A stretch of DNA of 11,276 nucleotides from a virus (lineage: Duplodnaviria > Heunggongvirae > Uroviricota > Caudoviricetes), in IMG/VR virus record IMGVR_UViG_2675903289_000014; one strand, given 5' to 3'. The notes below the pieces were generated by a model. That model was not told the DNA's origin. It ran no database searches and saw only the letters and a list, made by a program, of their open reading frames with translations. This document shows, one piece after another, positions 1,931 through 11,276 of this stretch (position 1 is the first letter of the stretch; every line of letters starts with the position of its first letter). The position numbers and the translations under genes were made by a program.

Positions 1931-2734
1931 NNNNNNNNNNNNNNNNNNNNNNNNNNNNNNNNNNNNNNNNNNNNNNNNNNNNNNNNNNNNNNNNNNNNNN
2001 NNNNNNNNNNNNNNNNNNNNNNNNNNNNNNNNNNNNNNNNNNNNNNNNNNNNNNNNNNNNNNNNNNNNNNNNNNNNNNNNNNNNNNNNNNNNNNNNNNNN
2101 NNNNNNNNNNNNNNNNNNNNNNNNNNNNNNNNNNNNNNNNNNNNNNNNNNNNNNNNNNNNNNNNNNNNNNNNNNNNNNNNNNNNNNNNNNNNNNNNNNNN
2201 NNNNNNNNNNNNNNNNNNNNNNNNNNNNNNNNNNNNNNNNNNNNNNNNNNNNNNNNNNNNNNNNNNNNNNNNNNNNNNNNNNNNNNNNNNNNNNNNNNNN
2301 NNNNNNNNNNNNNNNNNNNNNNNNNNNNNNNNNNNNNNNNNNNNNNNNNNNNNNNNNNNNNNNNNNNNNNNNNNNNNNNNNNNNNNNNNNNNNNNNNNNN
2401 NNNNNNNNNNNNNNNNNNNNNNNNNNNNNNNNNNNNNNNNNNNNNNNNNNNNNNNNNNNNNNNNNNNNNNNNNNNNNNNNNNNNNNNNNNNNNNNNNNNN
2501 NNNNNNNNNNNNNNNNNNNNNNNNNNNNNNNNNNNNNNNNNNNNNNNNNNNNNNNNNNNNNNNNNNNNNNNNNNNNNNNNNNNNNNNNNNNNNNNNNNNN
2601 NNNNNNNNNNNNNNNNNNNNNNNNNNNNNNNNNNNNNNNNNNNNNNNNNNNNNNNNNNNNNNNNNNNNNNNNNNNNNNNNNNNNNNNNNNNNNNNNNNNN
2701 NNNNNNNNNNNNNNNNNNNNNNNNNNNNNNNNNN

Positions 2735-2775
2735 AAATCATCACGAGCAGATGGTAGCCATAAAACGGGTAACAT
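2735..2775 (-). CDS. parE: ParE-family toxin, N-terminal 13 codons visible (MLPVLWLPSARDD...); remainder masked
   Basis: ATG at complement of 2773-2775 overlaps the upstream antitoxin stop (TAATG), the classic toxin-antitoxin coupling. The N-terminal peptide fits the ParE/RelE N-terminal pattern. Gene length cannot be seen. Confidence 0.4.
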
Positions 2776-2969
2776 TATTCACCTCTGTGAGTTGCAGCAG
2801 CAATTTGGGCAATAATTTGTTCCATTTCCGCCATTACCTCATCATGCGGAATCGCCGGGCGGGGATCCGCGAGGCTTGCTGCTACTTTGGCCCGCAGCCA
2901 TTCGTTGTAACTATTTTCTTGCTCAACTGTCTCAAATTCTGAAACCATTGGGGAAAGGACTGTACTCAT
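2775..2969 (-). CDS. paaA: small PaaA-like antitoxin of a ParE-type three-component toxin-antitoxin system (64 aa)
   Basis: ATG at complement of 2967-2969 with SD GGAG about 9 nt upstream; stop TAA at complement of 2775-2777. Product MSTVLSPMVSEFETVEQENSYNEWLRAKVAASLADPRPAIPHDEVMAEMEQIIAQIAAATHRGE. It sits between the cI-like repressor and a ParE-like start, the organisation described for paaR-paaA-parE in E. coli O157 cryptic prophages. Identity to PaaA2 is from memory, not verified. Confidence 0.55.
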   Translation of the reverse strand: MSTVLSPMVSEFETVEQENSYNEWLRAKVAASLADPRPAIPHDEVMAEMEQIIAQIAAATHRGE

Positions 2970-2988
2970 TTTACATATCTCCTCTGAT

Positions 2989-3489
2989 TTAGGCGCGACG
3001 GCCTTTTTGTGCAGCTAACCACCGCGCAACCGTACGATCCATTGATTCTTTTTTATCTTTCATCTCCTGAAGCATGTGTTCTTGATCTTCTTTCGGAAAA
3101 GCTCTGAACGTATGGATTAAATCTCGTTCCATCGGCTCTACGGCAAACGGTAGTTCATCCTCTGTTTGTTCTGTGTCTGCTGGTAATGCGACTATGTTAT
3201 CTTGCTGTGGTTCTCGACAATACATCCTTGCAATTTGCAGCAAATCTACCATGTCTGGCCTGATTGACTCAGGGGGAACTTTCAGTAAGCCAGCAAACTT
3301 TAGAACAGCCTCAAGGTTTAGTGGGGTTTGACCATTTAGGTAGTGACTTACCGCCCCTTGTGTTGAAAACCCCATAATTTCCGCCGCACGTTCCTGAGTC
3401 AATCCCAACTGAGATTTCTTTGCCATCCAGATTTCTTTCAGTCTTCTGGCGGCGTTGAGGTCGGTGTCTGACAATGATTTTCTTTTCAT
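2989..3489 (-). CDS. paaR: lambda cI-like HTH repressor lacking a LexA-type S24 peptidase domain (166 aa); PaaR-like
   Basis: ATG at complement of 3487-3489 (alternative GTG at 3519); stop TAA at complement of 2989-2991. The N-terminus SDTDLNAARRLKEIWMAKKSQLGLTQERAAEIMGFSTQGAVSHYLNGQTPLNLEAVLKFAGLLKVPPESI parallels the lambda cI DNA-binding domain. The C-terminus is short and acidic with no Ser/Lys peptidase motifs. It is divergent from the Cro-like gene. Confidence 0.6.
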   Translation of the reverse strand: MKRKSLSDTDLNAARRLKEIWMAKKSQLGLTQERAAEIMGFSTQGAVSHYLNGQTPLNLEAVLKFAGLLKVPPESIRPDMVDLLQIARMYCREPQQDNIVALPADTEQTEDELPFAVEPMERDLIHTFRAFPKEDQEHMLQEMKDKKESMDRTVARWLAAQKGRRA

Positions 3490-3600
3490 ACATCCAATTC
3501 TAATAAGATTGCTAATCACTTTGAAATAGTATCACTATTTACTTTTAAAAATAACAGTGCTATTAATTATGCATTGGTAACACATCACATAGGGCGGATT
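3490..3600. promoter_or_regulatory. divergent promoter/operator region of the immunity switch
   Basis: AT-rich 111-bp spacer between divergent repressor and Cro-like genes. Contains the 15-bp palindrome aatagtatcactatt (3525-3539, perfect 6-bp arms) and TATCAC-type half-sites (aatcact 3514-3520, tatcact 3530-3536, catcaca 3583-3589). Candidate rightward promoter: -35 tttact 3538-3543, 17-bp spacer, -10 tattaa 3561-3566. Candidate leftward promoter: -35 TTCAAA (complement of 3520-3525) and -10 TAGAAT (complement of 3497-3502), only about 8 nt from the repressor ATG. Confidence 0.5.
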
Positions 3601-3864
3601 ATGAATCTTGGAGAATATTTGCATCATTTTCATATAACCCAGAGTTCATTTGCTGAGATTGTTGGCGCATCCCAAGGGATGGTCAGCCACGTTATAACGG
3701 GGCGTGCAAAACTTACAGGAGAAAAAATATTACGTTGGTGTGAAGCAACGGGATGGGTGGTGACCCCACATGAGATTGACAGTAAAACCTACCCCAACCC
3801 AACTGACGGCTTGCCTGCTGAGTTTCAGGCTAACACACAACCATCGGCGGGGGTTGATTCATGA
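3601..3864 (+). CDS. ydaS: Cro-like HTH protein (YdaS family), 87 aa
   Basis: ATG 3601 with SD agggcgg at 3591-3597; stop TGA 3862-3864. Product MNLGEYLHHFHITQSSFAEIVGASQGMVSHVITGRAKLTGEKILRWCEATGW... has an XRE-type HTH. Position and orientation match cro. A TTG at 3574 is an alternative start. Confidence 0.6.
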   Translation: MNLGEYLHHFHITQSSFAEIVGASQGMVSHVITGRAKLTGEKILRWCEATGWVVTPHEIDSKTYPNPTDGLPAEFQANTQPSAGVDS

Positions 3865-4286
3865 AAATCAAGCATGAACACATCCGCATGGCGATGAAAG
3901 CCTGGGCGCATCCGGACGGTGAAAAAGTTCCGGCAGCTGAAATAACCAGGGTTTATTTCGAACTGGGAATGACGTTTCCGGTTCTGCATAACGACAGCAA
4001 GCACAACACGCTTTATCTCAACACCCAAAAGATTTTCCGTTGGCTGGATAAAGACACCCCTGACGCTGTTGAAAAAATTCAGGCGTTGTTACCTGCGATC
4101 GAAAGGGCAATGCCACCTCCGCTGGTGGCTCGAATGCGCAGCCACAGTTCAGCTTATTTTCGGGAACTGGTGGAGACGCATGAACGACTGGTGAGAGACG
4201 CTGATGATTTTGTCGCAGTGGCAATCGCCGGTTTCAATCAGATGAACCGTGGTGGCCCGGCAGGAAATGCTGTGGCAGTACATTGA
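3861..4286 (+). CDS. ydaT: YdaT-family protein (CII-like functional position), 141 aa
   Basis: ATG 3861 overlaps the Cro-like stop (ATGA) with a G-run SD upstream; stop TGA 4284-4286. The N-terminus MKIKHEHI... and the position directly after ydaS match Rac/CP-933P YdaT as I recall it. Confidence 0.65.
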   Translation: MKIKHEHIRMAMKAWAHPDGEKVPAAEITRVYFELGMTFPVLHNDSKHNTLYLNTQKIFRWLDKDTPDAVEKIQALLPAIERAMPPPLVARMRSHSSAYFRELVETHERLVRDADDFVAVAIAGFNQMNRGGPAGNAVAVH

Positions 4287-4681: not shown

Positions 4682-6138
4682 NNNNNNNNNNNNNNNNNNN
4701 NNNNNNNNNNNNNNNNNNNNNNNNNNNNNNNNNNNNNNNNNNNNNNNNNNNNNNNNNNNNNNNNNNNNNNNNNNNNNNNNNNNNNNNNNNNNNNNNNNNN
4801 NNNNNNNNNNNNNNNNNNNNNNNNNNNNNNNNNNNNNNNNNNNNNNNNNNNNNNNNNNNNNNNNNNNNNNNNNNNNNNNNNNNNNNNNNNNNNNNNNNNN
4901 NNNNNNNNNNNNNNNNNNNNNNNNNNNNNNNNNNNNNNNNNNNNNNNNNNNNNNNNNNNNNNNNNNNNNNNNNNNNNNNNNNNNNNNNNNNNNNNNNNNN
5001 NNNNNNNNNNNNNNNNNNNNNNNNNNNNNNNNNNNNNNNNNNNNNNNNNNNNNNNNNNNNNNNNNNNNNNNNNNNNNNNNNNNNNNNNNNNNNNNNNNNN
5101 NNNNNNNNNNNNNNNNNNNNNNNNNNNNNNNNNNNNNNNNNNNNNNNNNNNNNNNNNNNNNNNNNNNNNNNNNNNNNNNNNNNNNNNNNNNNNNNNNNNN
5201 NNNNNNNNNNNNNNNNNNNNNNNNNNNNNNNNNNNNNNNNNNNNNNNNNNNNNNNGTGTGNNNNNNNNNNNNNNNNNNNNNNNNNNNNNNNNNNNNNNNN
5301 NNNNNNNNNNNNNNNNNNNNNNNNNNNNNNNNNNNNNNNNNNNNNNNNNNNNNNNNNNNNNNNNNNNNNNNNNNNNNNNNNNNNNNNNNNNNNNNNNNNN
5401 NNNNNNNNNNNNNNNNNNNNNNNNNNNNNNNNNNNNNNNNNNNNNNNNNNNNNNNNNNNNNNNNNNNNNNNNNNNNNNNNNNNNNNNNNNNNNNNNNNNN
5501 NNNNNNNNNNNNNNNNNNNNNNNNNNNNNNNNNNNNNNNNNNNNNNNNNNNNNNNNNNNNNNNNNNNNNNNNNNNNNNNNNNNNNNNNNNNNNNNNNNNN
5601 NNNNNNNNNNNNNNNNNNNNNNNNNNNNNNNNNNNNNNNNNNNNNNNNNNNNNNNNNNNNNNNNNNNNNNNNNNNNNNNNNNNNNNNNNNNNNNNNNNNN
5701 NNNNNNNNNNNNNNNNNNNNNNNNNNNNNNNNNNNNNNNNNNNNNNNNNNNNNNNNNNNNNNNNNNNNNNNNNNNNNNNNNNNNNNNNNCGACGGGCAAA
5801 AATACGCGCTGAGCCNNNNNNNNNNNNNNNNNNNNNNNNNNNNNNNNNNNNNNNNNNNNNNNNNNNNNNNNNNNNNNNNNNNNNNNNNNNNNNNNNNNNN
5901 NNNNNNNNNNNNNNNNNNNNNNNNNNNNNNNNNNNNNNNNNNNNNNNNNNNNNNNNNNNNNNNNNNNNNNNNNNNNNNNNNNNNNNNNNNNNNNNNNNNN
6001 NNNNNNNNNNNNNNNNNNNNNNNNNNNNNNNNNNNNNNNNNNNNNNNNNNNNNNNNNNNNNNNNNNNNNNNNNNNNNNNNNNNNNNNNNNNNNNNNNNNN
6101 NNNNNNNNNNNNNNNNNNNNNNNNNNNNNNNNNNNNNN

Positions 6139-6237
6139 AACAAACCTGAATCATGCCGCAATGAGCACGCTTCTTGGTGAGAGGATTATGGACCGCATGA
6201 CCATGAACGGTTGTCGGTGGGTGACGTTTAACTGGGA
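6139..6237 (+). CDS. possible C-terminal fragment of a replication gene (DnaC/YdaV-like helicase-loader tail); flanked by masks
   Basis: One plus frame is open across the whole unmasked island and reads ...NLNHAAMSTLLGERIMDRMTMNGCRWVTFNW. The LGER...FNW pattern resembles the C-terminal tail of DnaC/IstB-type loaders, and the position after ydaU fits ydaV in Rac. Weak evidence from a 33-codon island. Confidence 0.3.
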
Positions 6238-6327
6238 NNNNNNNNNNNNNNNNNNNNNNNNNNNNNNNNNNNNNNNNNNNNNNNNNNNNCGGGAGTTGTG
6301 AAGTAATTTTTGTTGGAGGATGTTTTA

Positions 6328-7053
6328 ATGGAAACTGTATTTGACGCACTGAAAGCACTGAAAAGAGCCTCTTCACATGTGGTGGCGTCCCGCCTTGGAA
6401 TCAGCCGTGAAGATGCGGTCAACGAACTGTGGAAACTGAAGCGCCGTGGTGAAGCGGATAACAAGGGTTCGATGTGGTGGCTGATTCAGGCTGGTGAAAG
6501 TGAACCAGTGTCACCGGTACCGAAAGTGACAGCGCAAATGCTGACTGAGGCGATTGAACAACATGGCCCACAAACGGCGGATGAGCTGGCACTGATGTTC
6601 GGGATTACCTCCCGCCGGGCGAATTCATCGCTGGCCATGGCAATCAGCAAAGGGCGTCTGATTCGCGTGAATCAGGGCGGTAAATTTCGGTACTGCATAC
6701 CGGGCGCTGATTTACCGGCAGAGCCGAAAGCCGCATCCATAGCGGAAACGGATGGTAAAGTCTTTCCTCAGCCAGCAGGTGTTGCGTTACCGGTACAGGA
6801 AGCTGCAACACAGGAAGAAATTAAAACAGAAACTGTGGCGGACATTGTGCAGTCGTTGCCATCGTTCACCGAAACGCAAGCGGATGACCTGGTTTTACCA
6901 TCGCTGCATATGGCAAACCGCGAACTGCGTCGGGCGAAAAGTCATGTCCAGAAGTGGGAGCGTGTCTGCGCCGCGTTGCGGGAGCTGAACAAGCACCGGG
7001 ATATTGTTCGACAGATTGTCGATTCCTCCGGTCGTATTGTGTCGGAAAAGTGA
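6328..7053 (+). CDS. uncharacterised protein with two tandem winged-helix-like repeats, a Pro/Ala/Glu/Thr-rich linker and a basic C-terminal helix (241 aa); possibly YdaW/DUF1627-like
   Basis: ATG 6328 with strong SD GGAGGA (6316-6321); stop TGA 7051-7053. Internal repeats [26 protein letters not shown] and [29 protein letters not shown]. Fully unmasked clean ORF. Confidence 0.7.
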
Positions 7054-7068
7054 TTGCCGGGGGCGCTT

Positions 7069-7491
7069 ATGGCAAAAGTATTTACACAGGAAGAGCGGGA
7101 AAAAATTAAGGGGCAGGTTGTTGAACTCGTACGCCAGAGTGGGCGCGAGACGTTACGACAACTGGAAGCTAAAACCGGGGCGACAAGATATTTAATAAGC
7201 GTTCTCGCCAGAGAGCTGGTTGCCAGTGGGGATGTATACAACTCTGGCTACGGGTTATTCCCGTCTGAACAGGCTCGTAAGGACTGGCAAAACGCCCGCA
7301 AAAAACTCTCGAGGGCAAAGCTGAAGAAACCATCTGTGGTTGATCCGGACCTTATCTGGTCATTACCGGACGGAGAAATACGCCGCTACGACAGACATCA
7401 GAACATAATCTGTCGCGAGTGCCGGAAGAGTGAAGTTATGCAGCGTGTACCGGCTTTCTATCAGGGTGATTTTCAGGAGGCGGTACTGTGA
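7069..7491 (+). CDS. uncharacterised small protein with wH-like N-terminal motif and basic C-terminus (140 aa)
   Basis: ATG 7069 is 15 nt after the previous stop, with a G-run upstream; stop TGA 7489-7491. Motif LRQLEAKTGATRYLISVLARELVASGDV resembles the repeats in the preceding protein. A TTG at 7054 is an alternative start. Confidence 0.6.
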   Translation: MAKVFTQEEREKIKGQVVELVRQSGRETLRQLEAKTGATRYLISVLARELVASGDVYNSGYGLFPSEQARKDWQNARKKLSRAKLKKPSVVDPDLIWSLPDGEIRRYDRHQNIICRECRKSEVMQRVPAFYQGDFQEAVL

Positions 7492-7548
7492 GTGAAATTA
7501 GCTATCAGGCTTCAATTACCGCTGGCATTCGCATCAAAGGAGAGGAGC

Positions 7549-7905
7549 ATGGAAATAAAACCAGAAGATGAGTTAAGCAATATTGTTTTATTTCCGGTAA
7601 AAGAGGATAACCCTCGTAATCAGGTTAATTTTCTTTATGAGCCATCGGAAAGACCATATTGCCATCACGCTTCTGTCCGGGTTGACGAAAAAGAGCGTCA
7701 GGTCCGCTGTAAAATCTGCGGTGCGGTTGTGGAGCCGTTTGACTGGATGCTCTCTGTGGCAAAAAGAGAAACCAGACTGGCAGATGATGTAAGGCTCTTG
7801 CGCCAGGAGGAGCGGGAAAGGCGAAAAAATATAGAAAAGCTAATCCAGATTGAGCGTAATGCGAAAGCGCGGATACGCAGGGTGACAAAATATAGCCCCG
7901 AATAA
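7549..7905 (+). CDS. uncharacterised zinc-ribbon-like protein with Arg/Lys/Glu-rich coiled-coil tail (118 aa)
   Basis: ATG 7549 with strong SD aaggagaggag (7538-7547); stop TAA 7903-7905. Product contains C-H-H-x14-C-x2-C (YCHHASVRVDEKERQVRCKICGAVVEP) followed by RLADDVRLLRQEERERRKNIEKLIQIERNAKARIRR. A GTG at 7492 is an alternative start. Confidence 0.6.
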   Translation: MEIKPEDELSNIVLFPVKEDNPRNQVNFLYEPSERPYCHHASVRVDEKERQVRCKICGAVVEPFDWMLSVAKRETRLADDVRLLRQEERERRKNIEKLIQIERNAKARIRRVTKYSPE

Positions 7906-8119
7906 TCAAGGTTATTTCTGGAAGTCAAGTCGTGAGTGATGAGGACTAACAAATACGGTGAACTCGATAAAGAGATTCAGGACGAACTGGAGGCCAGGAA
8001 TGATTGACAAATCACCAAGTGAGTTCAGCTACAAAGATTTATTGTCATAACGGGTTATGAGATCGACTTGGTGCGTGATATTCTTCGGGCCAGTTTGCTA
8101 TGCGCCACCATGAGATGTT

Positions 8120-10021
8120 ATGGCCCGCATGTTTGATACATTAGGATTTTACATTATGAATGTGCAACATTTTGATTTTTTTACAGATAATGAGTTTTCT
8201 AATCTGGAAAGATATCAAACTTGTAAAGCCATGGCCAAAGGTTATGCGGGCAATTACAAAACCGGGCAGTCAAGGTTGATGCATGCCCGCTCATACTGCT
8301 TCAGCATCGTAGCTGCATATTGGGATACCCTTGCAAAAAAGCAAAAAAGCAGCATTAAAATGAGGGCAGTACCGCACACTGTTTACATAGAAGACATTCC
8401 ATGTGATGCACGCGAGCTCGCTGAACGAACAGGTGAGCTTATTGCTCAATTTCCGGCGGAGGACGCTGGATATCTGATTGGGTCAATTTATACGGTAATG
8501 CTGCCATCCGCTTACCGTTCGGAATTGGGGGCTTACTATACCCCCCCACCTTTGGTAGCGCGTCTCTTGGACCTGGCTGAAAAGTCTGGTGTTGATTTTT
8601 CTCATGCATCGGTTATTGATCCTGCGTGTGGTGGCGGTGCATTTTTGGCACCAGTAGCCATTCGAATGTTAAAAAAAGACAAGGGGTCTTCCCCTGAATG
8701 GATGTTGAGGAGAATCAGTCGTCGTTTAAAGGGGATAGAGATCGATCCATTTGCGGCTTGGATGAGTTTGGTATTGCTCGAATCTGTACTAATGCCACTA
8801 TGTGTAAAGGTAAAACGTAGATTGCCTGAAGATACAATTATTGTTGCTGATGCGCTTCAGCAAGATAAATTTTCTGGTTATGATCTTGTGGTAGGGAATC
8901 CGCCTTACGGACGTGTCACTCTCGATATTAAAACGAGAGAAAAATATTCTCGTTCGTTATTTGGTCATGCAAATCTATATGGATTGTTCACCGACTTAGC
9001 TGTTCGCATGGTTAAAGAGAAAACAGGAGTTATTGCATTTCTTACGCCAACTTCTTTTCTTGGTGGGCAGTATTTCACCGCGCTGCGAACCCTTTTGACC
9101 GAAAAAACTACTCCNNNNNNNNNNNNNNNNNNNNNNNNNNNNNNNNNNNNNNNNNNNNNNNNNNNNNNNNNNNNNNNNNNNNNNNNNNNNNNNNNNNNNN
9201 NNNNNNNNNNNNNNNNNNNNNNNNNNNNNNNNNNNNNNNNNNNNNNNNNNNNNNNNNNNNNNNNNNNNNNNNNNNNNNNNNNNNNNNNNNNNNNNNNNNN
9301 NNNNNNNNNNNNNNNNNNNNNNNNNNNNNNNNNNNNNNNNNNNNNNNNNNNNNNNNNNNNNNNNNNNNNNNNNNNNNNNNNNNNNNNNNNNNNNNNNNNN
9401 NNNNNNNNNNNNNNNNNNNNNNNNNNNNNNNNNNNNNNNNNNNNNNNNNNNNNNNNNNNNNNNNNNNNNNNNNNNNNNNNNNNNNNNNNNNNNNNNNNNN
9501 NNNNNNNNNNNNNNNNNNNNNNNNNNNNNNNNNNNNNNNNNNNNNNNNNNNNNNNNNNNNNNNNNNNNNNNNNNNNNNNNNNNNNNNNNNNNNNNNNNNN
9601 NNNNNNNNNNNNNNNNNNNNNNNNNACAAAATCTGAATGTGTGCTTGTTCAGCGGACAACATCGAAGGAACAGGACAGAAGGATTTTAGCGGCAATTTTA
9701 CCTCAGGGATTTATAGNNNNNNNNNNNNNNNNNNNNNNNNNNNNNNNNNNNNNNNNNNNNNNNNNNNNNNNNNNNNNNNNNNNNNNNNNNNNNNNNNNNN
9801 NNNNNNNNNNNNNNNNNNNNNNNNNNNNNNNNNNNNNNNNNNNNNNNNNNNNNNNNNNNNNNNNNNNNNNNNNNNNNNNNNNNNNNNNNNNNNNNNNNNN
9901 NNNNNNNNNNNNNNNNNNNNNNNNNNNNNNNNNNNNNNNNNNNNNNNNNNNNNNNNNNNNNNNNNNNNNNNNNNNNNNNNNNNNNNNNNNNNCTGGTTTC
10001 TATGGAGTGATGATTGCATGA
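8120..10021 (+). CDS. gamma-class N6-adenine DNA methyltransferase, Eco57I/PstI-type (about 620-633 aa; target-recognition region largely masked)
   Basis: Motifs read directly: GAYYTPPPLVARLL (Eco57I-type motif X), VIDPACGGGAFL (AdoMet-binding motif I), VVGNPPYG (motif IV, NPPY indicates N6-adenine). Motif I precedes motif IV, the gamma arrangement. The frame is continuous through both masked blocks to TGA 10019-10021. Start is uncertain (ATG 8120, 8129 or 8156, none with a strong SD). Confidence 0.85.
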   Translation: MARMFDTLGFYIMNVQHFDFFTDNEFSNLERYQTCKAMAKGYAGNYKTGQSRLMHARSYCFSIVAAYWDTLAKKQKSSIKMRAVPHTVYIEDIPCDARELAERTGELIAQFPAEDAGYLIGSIYTVMLPSAYRSELGAYYTPPPLVARLLDLAEKSGVDFSHASVIDPACGGGAFLAPVAIRMLKKDKGSSPEWMLRRISRRLKGIEIDPFAAWMSLVLLESVLMPLCVKVKRRLPEDTIIVADALQQDKFSGYDLVVGNPPYGRVTLDIKTREKYSRSLFGHANLYGLFTDLAVRMVKEKTGVIAFLTPTSFLGGQYFTALRTLLTEKTTXXXXXXXXXXXXXXXXXXXXXXXXXXXXXXXXXXXXXXXXXXXXXXXXXXXXXXXXXXXXXXXXXXXXXXXXXXXXXXXXXXXXXXXXXXXXXXXXXXXXXXXXXXXXXXXXXXXXXXXXXXXXXXXXXXXXXXXXXXXXXXXXXXXXXXXXXXXXXXXXXXXXXXXXXXXTKSECVLVQRTTSKEQDRRILAAILPQGFIXXXXXXXXXXXXXXXXXXXXXXXXXXXXXXXXXXXXXXXXXXXXXXXXXXXXXXXXXXXXXXXXXXXXXXXXXXXXXXXXXXXXXXXXXXXXXGFYGVMIA

Positions 10022-11100
10022 ATCTGCCTGTTGTTCCCCCATTGAATGTTATCCGGGAAAGATTACAATTAATTTTCCCTGAAGGGACTGAGAATCGTGG
10101 ATATTTAATTCGGGAAATAGCTGCAAAAACAATTTTTGTCATGTTTTATGCTGGTGCGGTTGAGGGGCTGGGGCGATGGATAAGGCCCAGCCAGGTTGTA
10201 AGTATGGGAGATTCGCAGGCTGCTCTTACTGATGATGCGTCCAGAGAAAGCTGGGTAAAGATGACTTTCTCTAAACAAAAGATAAGGCCTGCTGATGCAT
10301 GGTATGCGGAAAATACGCGTGAGCCAATACGTGATGAAACTATAAAAAATGGCCTAATACCTTGCAATGCAATTGTTGAGCGTAAAGGTATACCCACCAC
10401 ATCCTCTCGTCCTCGTTACAGTTTGAATCGCTCTTTTGCAGCACTCTTTGATGCCGGGCTTGAAGGAGATTCGCTGCTGAGTGCAATAAGTTCCTGGCAA
10501 GAAAATCATTTGAACAAAGCCGCTCTTGCTAGGTTGCGTTTATTGAAATCAGGGGCAGTGATTGCTGCTGATGCCGTAGTCGTCACTTTCCCAAATGGAG
10601 AGAAGAGAACTTTAGCTCCGGGCCCGTCAAGTACAATAGCTAAGGCCGTCATCGAAGTTTTTGCTCCTAATTTTCTTAAGAATCCAACTGTGCTCTGGTT
10701 GTCTGAATCCGGGAATAAAGTTGTTGCTCAGGATGATGTATTGGCAAAAGCATTGGGGCTGAATATTGATGCCTCAAAAGCACTTCCAGATATTATTTTG
10801 ATTGATTTGGGAGAGGACCGAACGGGTTCGGACATGCTTGTAGTTTTCACTGAAGTAGTTGCGACAGATGGGCCTATAAACAGGGAACGAAAAGTTACTC
10901 TCACTCATTTGGCTATTGACGCTGGGTTCAGCGAGAAAAATCTTGCATTCCTTACGGCATTTATGGACAGAAGTGCTCTGCCTTTTAAAAAGGCAATACC
11001 AGAATTGGCGTGGGGATCTTATGCATGGTTTGCTTCTGAACCGGAGCACTTAATTGATCTTCGGGATGGTTATCCGGTAAAGATCAGCCAGAGAAAATGA
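10018..11100 (+). CDS. putative type II restriction endonuclease, BsuBI/PstI-like (360 aa)
   Basis: ATG 10018 overlaps the methyltransferase stop (ATGA) with GGAG about 10 nt upstream; stop TGA 11098-11100. The C-terminal region has a PD...E-type nuclease-like segment (LPDIILIDLGEDRTGSDMLVVFTEVVATDG). Family assignment rests on context (partner of an Eco57I/PstI-type methyltransferase) and size, not on a verified alignment. Confidence 0.7.
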   Translation: MNLPVVPPLNVIRERLQLIFPEGTENRGYLIREIAAKTIFVMFYAGAVEGLGRWIRPSQVVSMGDSQAALTDDASRESWVKMTFSKQKIRPADAWYAENTREPIRDETIKNGLIPCNAIVERKGIPTTSSRPRYSLNRSFAALFDAGLEGDSLLSAISSWQENHLNKAALARLRLLKSGAVIAADAVVVTFPNGEKRTLAPGPSSTIAKAVIEVFAPNFLKNPTVLWLSESGNKVVAQDDVLAKALGLNIDASKALPDIILIDLGEDRTGSDMLVVFTEVVATDGPINRERKVTLTHLAIDAGFSEKNLAFLTAFMDRSALPFKKAIPELAWGSYAWFASEPEHLIDLRDGYPVKISQRK

Positions 11101-11140
11101 CCAAAGTTTGATATCCGCCACGCCCTGAAGGATGGGGGTT

Positions 11141-11276
11141 TTACGGTGCACTGGATAAAAAATCGGTTTCATAGATTTGCCCACCGTGGTATACGCCTGC
11201 GATAAAAACTTTATTGTCATCAACGGCAAAAGCAATAATTGTTCTGTGGCGGGGTGATGCTGCCAACTTACTGATT
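11141..11276 (-). CDS. C-terminal 44 codons of a convergent gene, RelE/YoeB-like toxin tail (5' end beyond window)
   Basis: Minus frame open from the window edge to TAA at complement of 11141-11143; translation ...ISKLAASPRHRTIIAFAVDDNKVFIAGVYHGGQIYETDFLSSAP. The HR-(I/V)-x-A...DD...IA..YH pattern resembles RelE/YoeB-superfamily C-termini. Low-confidence family call from a fragment. Confidence 0.3.
   Translation of the reverse strand, partial: ISKLAASPRHRTIIAFAVDDNKVFIAGVYHGGQIYETDFLSSAP

Follow-up and report, generated by a model that had tools for sequence, protein, structure and literature searches.

We propose that the three genes at positions 6328 to 7905 of the 11,276-nucleotide window (the whole stretch of viral DNA analyzed here) are delayed-early accessory genes of a PaaR2-repressed rightward operon in a lambdoid backbone of the Rac/CP-933P type, and that they stand apart from the restriction-modification (R-M) cassette that follows them. 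We give this reading a probability of about 80%; a functional tie between the trio and the cassette is not supported by the sequence comparisons described below. The three genes are co-oriented, encode proteins of 241, 140, and 118 amino acids (ORF1, ORF2, and ORF3), and are separated by spacers of 15 and 57 nt, a layout given by the original prediction that is borne out both by our reading of the sequence and by independent gene calls in unmasked relatives, which recover the identical three genes. Profile matches (PF07789, 309 bits; PF06163, 106 bits; phrog_1621, E = 1e-54) indicate that they are real genes and not chance open reading frames. The flanks are likewise as predicted, namely, a replication module on one side and an R-M cassette on the other. 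The 3' end of a DnaC/IstB-like, ydaV-like replication helper gene (6139 to 6301, plus strand) ends 26 nt before ORF1, and in the unmasked relative L009, to which the window was mapped, a 248-amino-acid IstB_IS21/Bac_DnaA protein ends just 5' of the DUF1627 gene. On the 3' side, a type II methyltransferase gene and then a BsuBI/PstI-family endonuclease gene follow from position 8120. The window is an IS1-truncated lambdoid prophage remnant such as those found in Shigella sonnei, IS1 having reduced the element to about 10 kb; no RNA family in Rfam was matched anywhere in the window.

Upstream of the trio lies an immunity region of the CP-933P type (2485 to 4286), recognized by Pfam matches to PaaA2 (E = 3e-23), HTH_3, and YdaT_toxin. 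Its minus strand carries a paaR2-like repressor gene (2989 to 3519), paaA2 (2775 to 2969), and a masked parE2 (about 2485 to 2775), the latter seen as a ParE_toxin gene call in L009, and its plus strand carries a ydaS/cro-like gene (3574 to 3864) and a ydaT/cII-like gene (3861 to 4286). PaaR2, YdaS, and YdaT have been described as analogues of CI, Cro, and CII, respectively (PMC8630535). The rightward early operon reads ydaS(cro), ydaT(cII), replication genes, an optional DUF1627 gene, the DUF977 gene, ORF3, nin region, and Q, with the trio in a distal position, and on this analysis the immunity region should control the operon that contains the trio. A scan of positions 6150 to 8250 found neither a promoter-like site nor, on the plus strand, a terminator-like site. 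Since no internal promoter or terminator was detected, the trio would be cotranscribed with the replication genes and expressed only when the CI-like repressor PaaR2 is lifted.

ORF1 (6328 to 7053, plus strand; ATG at 6328, TGA at 7051 to 7053) is preceded by a ribosome-binding-type sequence, GGAGGA, at 6315 to 6320 and encodes a member of the DUF1627/YdaW family, as the original prediction had cautioned it might. It matches PF07789 (DUF1627) along the entire profile (1 to 155 of 155; E = 5.9e-93; 309.2 bits, with a cutoff of 28.1 bits) and phrog_630 with an E value of 1.7e-121. It is located after the DnaC-like gene, as in E. coli O145, 13E0780, S. sonnei-type loci, and the K-12 Rac prophage, where the order is ydaU-ydaV-ydaW. 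AlphaFold2 models were made of ORF1 and ORF3, both of moderate confidence (pLDDT values of 63.5 and 72.6 for the two models). The ORF1 model contains an N-terminal helix-turn-helix (helices 4 to 39), a complete winged helix (69 to 123), a disordered linker (131 to 189), and a long helix (183 to 240). The best Foldseek match of this model was the tandem winged-helix protein ScpB, followed by MarR/ArsR winged helices; every match had an E value above 0.001, and only generic winged-helix matches were returned. In the literature on DUF977, DUF1627, and YdaW, no functional study was found beyond a winged-helix prediction (PMC2686095) and an overexpression screen in which K-12 ydaW was one of the prophage genes able to block the toxicity of the retron-Sen2 toxin RcaT (bioRxiv 10.1101/2020.06.22.160242). 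We envisage ORF1 as a tandem winged-helix protein with a putative dimerizing helix; its probable ligand is DNA, something DNA-like, or a protein, in the context of early replication or host takeover.

ORF2 (7069 to 7491, plus strand; ATG at 7069, TGA at 7489 to 7491) starts 15 nt beyond the ORF1 stop codon, with merely a weak G run (GGGGG) upstream. It is a 140-amino-acid protein of the DUF977/LygF family and a distant relative of the lambda protein Ren. It matches PF06163 (DUF977) over the full profile (1 to 134 of 134; E = 2.2e-30; 105.9 bits, with a cutoff of 22.1 bits) and phrog_142, annotated as "Ren-like exclusion protein," over positions 1 to 115 of 116 (E = 2e-46), and lambda Ren itself matches phrog_142 with an E value of 1.6e-41. 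In a direct BLASTP comparison with Ren, only the C-terminal motif of ORF2, ECRKSEVMQRV, was aligned (E = 1e-5). The gene order is O-P-ren in lambda and replication genes-DUF1627-ORF2 here, and in many relatives the DUF977 gene directly follows the replication genes. LygF appears in the literature just as a name, taken from the sdf region of Salmonella Enteritidis. Toothman and Herskowitz reportedly observed in 1980 that ren mutant phage are sensitive to Rex. From this kinship, we infer a Ren-like role for ORF2 in replication or anti-exclusion: most likely, it would act as Ren does, as a small winged-helix protein that associates with the replication complex of the phage, and would spare the lytic development of its own phage from Rex-type abortive-infection systems. 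Lambda ren has been described as "likely involved in DNA replication," and two-hybrid assays showed interaction of the Rex proteins with O and with Ren (bioRxiv 10.1101/2021.04.19.439022).

ORF3 (7549 to 7905, plus strand; ATG at 7549, TAA at 7903 to 7905) starts 57 nt beyond the ORF2 stop codon, shortly after the sequence AAGGAGAGGAG. Its 118-amino-acid product matches phrog_1621 (E = 1.1e-54; residues 1 to 115 on profile positions 1 to 118 of 134). Residues F15, P16, C38, H40, C54, and C57 are invariant, an N-terminal motif, ELxNVVxFP, is present, and the C terminus, LRxEExxRRxNIEKLIQIERNAKARIRR, is highly conserved. In the AlphaFold2 model, a β-hairpin (43 to 54) lies amid the CHCC zinc-ribbon residues and is followed by a long basic helix (63 to 115). 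Together with the model of ORF1, this agrees with the tandem winged helices, zinc ribbon, and basic coiled coils that had been proposed from the letters. A fold search of the ORF3 model against the PDB and viral predicted structures gave nothing significant, the top match being a 27-column alignment with the TFIIB zinc ribbon (E = 0.29). For all three proteins, a sequence search of solved structures gave a best E value of 0.35, and NCBIfam gave no match. The profile searches that the original prediction had named as a check placed the trio in DUF1627, DUF977/phrog_142, and phrog_1621, and the fold matches of the ORF1 and ORF3 models were weak. ORF3 would be a zinc-ribbon protein of the nin region with a coiled-coil-type helix, and the extreme conservation of its C terminus suggests a conserved binding partner in the host or the phage.

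The distribution of the three genes is that of common prophage backbone genes. Of 5426 complete E. coli genomes, 4278 carry parts of the trio (median, 2 places per genome) and 100 carry all of it; ORF3 was found in 1679 E. coli genomes at 2132 places. The R-M cassette occurs in 2 of the 5426 genomes, in one of which two other genes lie between the DUF977 gene and ORF3. Both carriers lack DUF1627, and hence the 100 genomes with the whole trio exclude them. Prophages of E. coli 13E0780, ST131, O145, and C1 carry replication genes, an optional DUF1627 gene, the DUF977 gene, an identical 57-nt spacer, and ORF3, followed by DUF7167, Ea22, DUF551, and hokD genes and no R-M genes. Across genera, scanning for loci with the profile of ORF3 yielded a small sample of 12; in Erwinia, Photorhabdus, and Pantoea, ORF3 has NinG/DUF968 genes on one side and the antiterminator gene Q on the other, and DUF977, DUF1627, and R-M genes were not detectable at these loci. 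ORF1, ORF2, and ORF3 therefore assort independently of one another. The earlier description of three uncharacterized proteins of nucleic-acid-binding style, encoded just behind the replication genes, is borne out.

An alternative is that the trio is a dedicated phage counter-defense set, with ORF2 directed against Rex-like systems, ORF1/YdaW against retron-type toxins, and ORF3 assisting or targeting another system. The membership of lambda Ren in PHROG 142 and the blocking of RcaT by K-12 ydaW both point in this direction, and the genes are expressed early, small, nonenzymatic, and mosaic, as many anti-defense genes are. However, the ydaW evidence is a screening result obtained with a truncated K-12 allele and comes with no mechanism, the kinship with Ren is remote, independent assortment argues against an obligate three-part system, and no link of the trio to restriction was found. 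We consider this alternative unlikely, and we attach similarly low odds to its broader form, in which the conserved post-replication genes of Rac/CP-933P-type phages constitute an early counter-defense set, each acting on a different abortive-infection system. The anti-restriction module that had been proposed is not supported: among the Pfam, PHROG, and NCBIfam matches, the anti-restriction families ArdA, ArdB/KlcA, Ocr, and Ral were absent, though a purely structural mimic could escape such sequence comparisons, and nothing else in these comparisons appears to tie the trio to restriction. An anti-defense flavor persists only indirectly, through ORF2 and Ren and through the K-12 ydaW screen, neither of which bears on restriction.

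The type II cassette itself (8120 to 11100, plus strand; Pfam Eco57I/N6_Mtase and BsuBI_PstI_RE(_N)) consists of a partly masked N6-adenine methyltransferase gene (8120 to 10021, plus strand; PADLOC MTase_II, 5.9e-155), whose product has 610 amino acids in unmasked relatives, and a BsuBI/PstI-family endonuclease gene (10018 to 11100, plus strand; PADLOC REase_II, 4.9e-128), whose product has 360. It is preceded by a cassette-specific leader of about 215 nt (7906 to 8119, plus strand), which occurs only in the two cassette-bearing E. coli genomes and in S. sonnei-type loci and in which no consensus promoter was found. A 22-codon open reading frame within the leader (7950 to 8018, plus strand) was examined as a possible remnant of an Ea22 gene and rejected as such; it is confined to cassette-bearing loci. 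The window was aligned with four E. coli loci, two of which bear the cassette and two of which do not. Similarity to the cassette-free prophages stops in the final four codons of ORF3, which defines a mosaic junction at 7892 to 7905. Most megablast matches to ORF3 halt at query position 343 of 357, and the GC content, which is 0.50 to 0.55 in ORF1, falls to about 0.41 where the cassette begins. As judged from the end of similarity in these last codons, the rare module made up of the R-M genes and their leader is separate from the backbone, to which it is joined at the 3' end of ORF3. The cassette-bearing loci are near identical across the junction and may therefore reflect a single acquisition. 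The idea that the trio travels with the cassette does not agree with this junction, nor with the three families being found overwhelmingly in prophages without R-M genes; all three are conserved lambdoid families, an outcome that makes up the comparative half of what the original prediction had itself named as telling against a link to the cassette.

It follows that a regulatory role for the trio, or for ORF3 alone, as a substitute for a C protein that delays expression of the endonuclease is very improbable, even though the cassette does not encode a C protein, all three proteins resemble nucleic acid binders, and ORF3 lies directly 5' of the methyltransferase gene in every cassette-bearing locus seen. 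The cassette accompanies ORF3 in just 2 of 1679 E. coli genomes, both without DUF1627, and with the junction lying inside the last codons of ORF3, the adjacency is that of a recombination joint. C proteins are small and of the Xre-type helix-turn-helix class, whereas HTH_3 and HTH_31 matched none of ORF1, ORF2, and ORF3, although they matched the repressor-type genes of the window. Furthermore, where the methyltransferase gene comes first and overlaps the endonuclease gene, expression can be ordered in the absence of a C protein, and in this cassette the methyltransferase stop codon overlaps the endonuclease start. The only inverted repeat in 7880 to 8140 has 8-nt arms (8013 to 8020 and 8066 to 8073) that are 45 nt apart. 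The regulator originally proposed as a stand-in for the missing C protein thus receives no support when 2 genomes with the cassette are set against 4278 with parts of the trio, but ORF3 may still have a local effect on the cassette, for example, by read-through transcription. A BsuBI-like endonuclease of Stx2a phages was also considered as a case of linkage with ORF3 and was discarded, as it lies about 9 kb away and is only 27% identical.

Least probable of all is that the trio is an uncharacterized anti-phage defense system carried as prophage cargo: the nearby R-M and toxin-antitoxin (ParDE) modules give the region the look of a defense island, but in PADLOC-DB 2.0 neither ORF2 nor ORF3 had a match and ORF1 had one only at an E value of 0.0099 (12.5 bits, over the winged helix; threshold, E ≤ 0.001), none of the proteins has an enzymatic or effector domain, the genes lie inside an early lytic operon that is under repression, where no separate promoter for them was found, and most E. 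coli genomes have them, often as several copies and mostly in R-M-free prophages, at a fixed backbone position behind the replication genes, so that the cassette-linked defense system envisaged earlier receives no support.

Taken together, these data favor delayed-early accessory genes whose families (DUF1627, DUF977, and phrog_1621) are already catalogued and are among the commonest prophage genes of E. coli and Shigella. The rare inserted cargo is the R-M cassette and not the trio, and the locus provides a clean case of a rare R-M and ParDE module spliced into a lambdoid nin region exactly at the end of a gene. These early genes are very abundant, one of them being a relative of Ren, and assigning them a function could annotate thousands of genomes. 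If the counter-defense reading were true, it would give a function to a family that most E. coli genomes carry and a mechanism to the 45-year-old Ren phenotype.

In comparison with known systems, the trio resembles R-M C proteins in lying 5' of an R-M pair and in presumably binding nucleic acid, and in nothing else: it belongs to the winged-helix and zinc-ribbon fold classes and not to the Xre-type helix-turn-helix class, it is not codistributed with R-M genes, and no C-box-like operator was identified in 7880 to 8140. The likeness to CP-933P/Sp12 of E. coli O157:H7 is known for the immunity region, where the paaR2-paaA2-parE2 and ydaS-ydaT layout is the same and here lies upstream of the trio, whereas IS1 has cut the present element down to about 10 kb, and R-M genes are present in it. 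ORF1 is a full-length DUF1627 protein in the same place after the DnaC-like ydaV as YdaW of K-12 Rac, while K-12 ydaW has been cut to 561 bp by an internal deletion in Rac. ORF2 is the counterpart of lygF in the ydaW-lygF pairs of Rac-type phages, in which ORF3 is often missing, the matches ending after DUF977. With regard to lambda Ren, ORF2 is longer (140 versus 96 amino acids), about 40 residues being inserted between its winged helix and its C-terminal motif, the Pfam DUF977 profile does not detect Ren, the identity in the alignment is only about 26% and marks a remote link, and a DUF1627 gene here intervenes between the replication genes and ORF2. Nevertheless, the two proteins have in common an N-terminal winged helix, the C-terminal signature N-[IL]-[IV]-x-x-ECR-x-S-x-x-M-x-RV-x-A-x-Y, membership in phrog_142, and a gene that follows the replication genes within the rightward early (pR) operon.

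The three co-oriented plus-strand genes at 6328-7905 are real, with our reading of the sequence and gene calls on unmasked public relatives, which predict these same genes, in agreement. ORF1 (6328-7053, 241 aa) has GGAGGA 7 nt 5' of its ATG, ORF2 (7069-7491, 140 aa) starts 15 nt past the ORF1 stop with just a G-run upstream, and ORF3 (7549-7905, 118 aa) starts 57 nt past the ORF2 stop with AAGGAGAGGAG upstream. The trio is preceded by the 3' end of a DnaC/IstB-like replication gene and followed, after 215 nt, by a restriction-modification (R-M) cassette consisting of a type II N6-adenine methyltransferase gene and then a BsuBI/PstI-family endonuclease gene. Profile searches place all three proteins in already-known families with unknown function. 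ORF1 is a full-length DUF1627 protein (PF07789, E=5.9e-93; phrog_630, 1.7e-121), which bears out the suggestion that it is a YdaW/DUF1627-type phage gene. ORF2 is a full-length DUF977 protein (PF06163, 2.2e-30) that also matches phrog_142, "Ren-like exclusion protein" (2e-46), and ORF3 belongs to phrog_1621, of unknown function (1.1e-54), its sole Pfam signal being a TFIIB-type zinc ribbon below threshold. In deposited phage records, the counterparts of ORF1 and ORF2 are named ydaW and lygF; the K-12 Rac prophage has the order ydaU-ydaV-ydaW, although the Rac deletion has cut ydaW short. It is of note that masked runs of the window (e.g., 431-772, 4682-6138, and 9115-9625) do not preserve the underlying length: the offset from L009, a near-identical unmasked Shigella sonnei-type locus, shifts by 10 to 126 nt across each, and hence the methyltransferase reads 633 aa in the window versus 610 aa in unmasked relatives.

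A sequence search found no related solved structure for ORF1, ORF2, or ORF3. The AlphaFold2 model of ORF1 (mean pLDDT, 63.5; about 80-89 in the second winged helix) comprises a three-helix HTH (residues 4-39), a complete winged helix (69-123), a disordered linker (131-189), and a long helix (183-240). Foldseek matched it to the tandem winged-helix protein ScpB and to many MarR/ArsR winged helices; probabilities were close to 1, but no E-value was better than 2e-3. The tandem winged helix and long helix suggest that ORF1 may be a dimeric binder of DNA or a partner, which would be active at the same early stage as ORF2. In a screen by overexpression, K-12 ydaW was one of the prophage genes that blocked RcaT, the retron-Sen2 toxin (bioRxiv 10.1101/2020.06.22.160242), which is a lead rather than a mechanism. 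The ORF3 model contains a beta-hairpin (43-54) and a helix (63-115), and a fold search with it gave no significant match. Across 28 homologues from Escherichia, Salmonella, Klebsiella, Kluyvera, Serratia, Erwinia, Yersinia, and others, F15-P16 and C38-x-H40...C54-x-x-C57 are invariant, and the C-terminal helix LRxEExxRRxNIEKLIQIERNAKARIRR is almost so. The conservation of this helix suggests that ORF3 would bind a conserved partner. Residues 1-16 (window 7549-7596), otherwise disordered, carry the motif E-x-E-L-x-N-V-V-x-F-P, kept across all genera, which resembles a short linear motif by which a partner would be bound. The models of ORF1 and ORF3, together with the ORF3 alignment, agree with the winged helices and zinc ribbon first read from the sequence.

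Thousands of assemblies encode a protein identical to ORF1; the long contigs examined are chromosomes of 4.8-5.0 Mb, and S. sonnei is the source of the most similar named proteins. In S. sonnei-type loci, the element has been reduced to a remnant of about 10 kb with IS1 copies at its ends, dms genes on one side, and a mannitol-dehydrogenase gene on the other, and it contains no integrase or late genes. The left part of the element is a CP-933P-type immunity region (window 2485-4286), in which the three-gene toxin-antitoxin/repressor operon paaR2-paaA2-parE2 (minus strand; PaaA2, E=3e-23; the ParE gene hidden by masking here and called in relatives) faces ydaS (cro-like) and ydaT (cII-like). 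In O157:H7, this locus shows bistability, and PaaR2, YdaS, and YdaT act as analogues of CI, Cro, and CII (PMC8630535). Since a scan of 6150-8250 revealed no promoter-like or plus-strand terminator-like site, the trio would be transcribed together with the replication genes, starting from the rightward promoter that PaaR2 represses. Relative to the S. sonnei-type loci compared, the window has a surplus of about 1.4 kb (1197-2734). Part of this is a second DUF1391-like copy (1273-1436) that has diverged from the one with an exact match at 773-870, the two being 92.7% identical; also included, on the minus strand, is the C-terminal portion of a further HTH_3 repressor-like gene (1605-1934).

The original prediction included a possible link of the trio to the cassette, and gene-neighbourhood comparison does not support this link. 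A search of 5426 complete E. coli genomes located pieces of 6300-7960 in 4278 of them (at 9889 places; median, 2 per genome), all three genes in 100, and ORF3 by itself in 1679 (2132 places), versus 2 for the cassette; the trio thus consists of conserved lambdoid families found overwhelmingly without R-M genes. DUF1627 is missing from both cassette-bearing genomes, and in one of them DUF4406 and Ea22-like genes sit between DUF977 and ORF3. In E. coli 13E0780, the best trio match, the trio follows the replication genes and precedes DUF7167, Ea22-like, DUF551, hokD, DUF968, and RusA genes, with no R-M genes; prophages of ST131, O145, and strain C1 are alike, with an identical 57-nt DUF977-ORF3 spacer. 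In an alignment, cassette-bearing and cassette-free loci are identical up to about window 7891, diverge in the last four ORF3 codons, and are unrelated beyond. This distribution, the junction at the ORF3 end, the 215-nt leader found only together with the cassette, and the drop in GC (0.50-0.55 in ORF1, about 0.41 where the cassette begins) show that the trio is backbone and that the cassette, along with the ParE/ParD pair following it in E. coli, is a separate module inserted into the nin region where a gene ends.

Within the leader, a 22-codon ORF (7950-8018; MRTNKYGELDKEIQDELEARND) is conserved in every cassette-bearing locus and in none of the others compared, and an 8-nt inverted repeat (8013-8020/8066-8073) lies beside it. 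In some S. sonnei-type assemblies (L011:11793-13624 and L014:11792-13623), the methyltransferase gene is broken into two ORFs and the endonuclease gene is intact; this could be sequencing error or real decay, and real decay would be unexpected if the R-M pair is live. Immediately after the endonuclease gene, another RelE/ParE-family toxin gene starts (11050-11276, minus strand; L002:14167-14741). In E. coli FDAARGOS_943 its ParD antitoxin gene comes next, and in S. sonnei-type loci the endonuclease gene is instead followed by IS1. A further 16 E. coli genomes, which lack the cassette, contain ParE-like sequence of 89% identity.

Nor do the three genes form an obligate unit, as common combinations are DUF1627 and DUF977 without ORF3, DUF977 and ORF3 without DUF1627, and DUF977 alone. 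Near the ORF3 homologues of Erwinia, Photorhabdus, Pantoea, and Kluyvera, phmmer (E<1e-3) detected no DUF977, DUF1627, or R-M genes. In Erwinia, Photorhabdus, and Pantoea, the homologue has NinG/DUF968-type genes on one side and the Q antiterminator gene on the other, which indicates that ORF3 is a nin-region gene; a Klebsiella phage copy also adjoins NinG.

That the trio is a counter-defence set has a low probability, and this reading overlaps the analogy with lambda Ren discussed below. An anti-phage defence system is contradicted by the absence of PADLOC matches and effector domains and by the fixed backbone position within a repressed lytic operon. A stand-in for the missing C protein of the cassette is contradicted by distribution, fold class, and the backbone-cassette junction. 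The original prediction is partly supported, in its description and not in its cassette link; the comparative findings are those that it had named as counting against such a link, and none of the roles proposed here for the three backbone genes concerns restriction.

Of these roles, that of ORF2 would be to act as lambda Ren does. Toothman and Herskowitz reportedly found that lambda without Ren becomes sensitive to Rex exclusion. The ren gene is transcribed together with O and P from pR (PMC3640518), and Ren is likely involved in replication and interacts with Rex proteins in two-hybrid assays (bioRxiv 10.1101/2021.04.19.439022). Ren (J02459) matches phrog_142 (1.6e-41), as ORF2 does, and both have an N-terminal winged helix and a common C-terminal motif (NIICRECRKSEVMQRVPAFY/NLVFKECRQSAAMKRVLAVY). 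Pfam DUF977 is matched by ORF2 and not reached by Ren; ORF2 is thus a distant Ren relative. It takes the place of Ren downstream of the replication genes, although here a DUF1627 gene sits in between.
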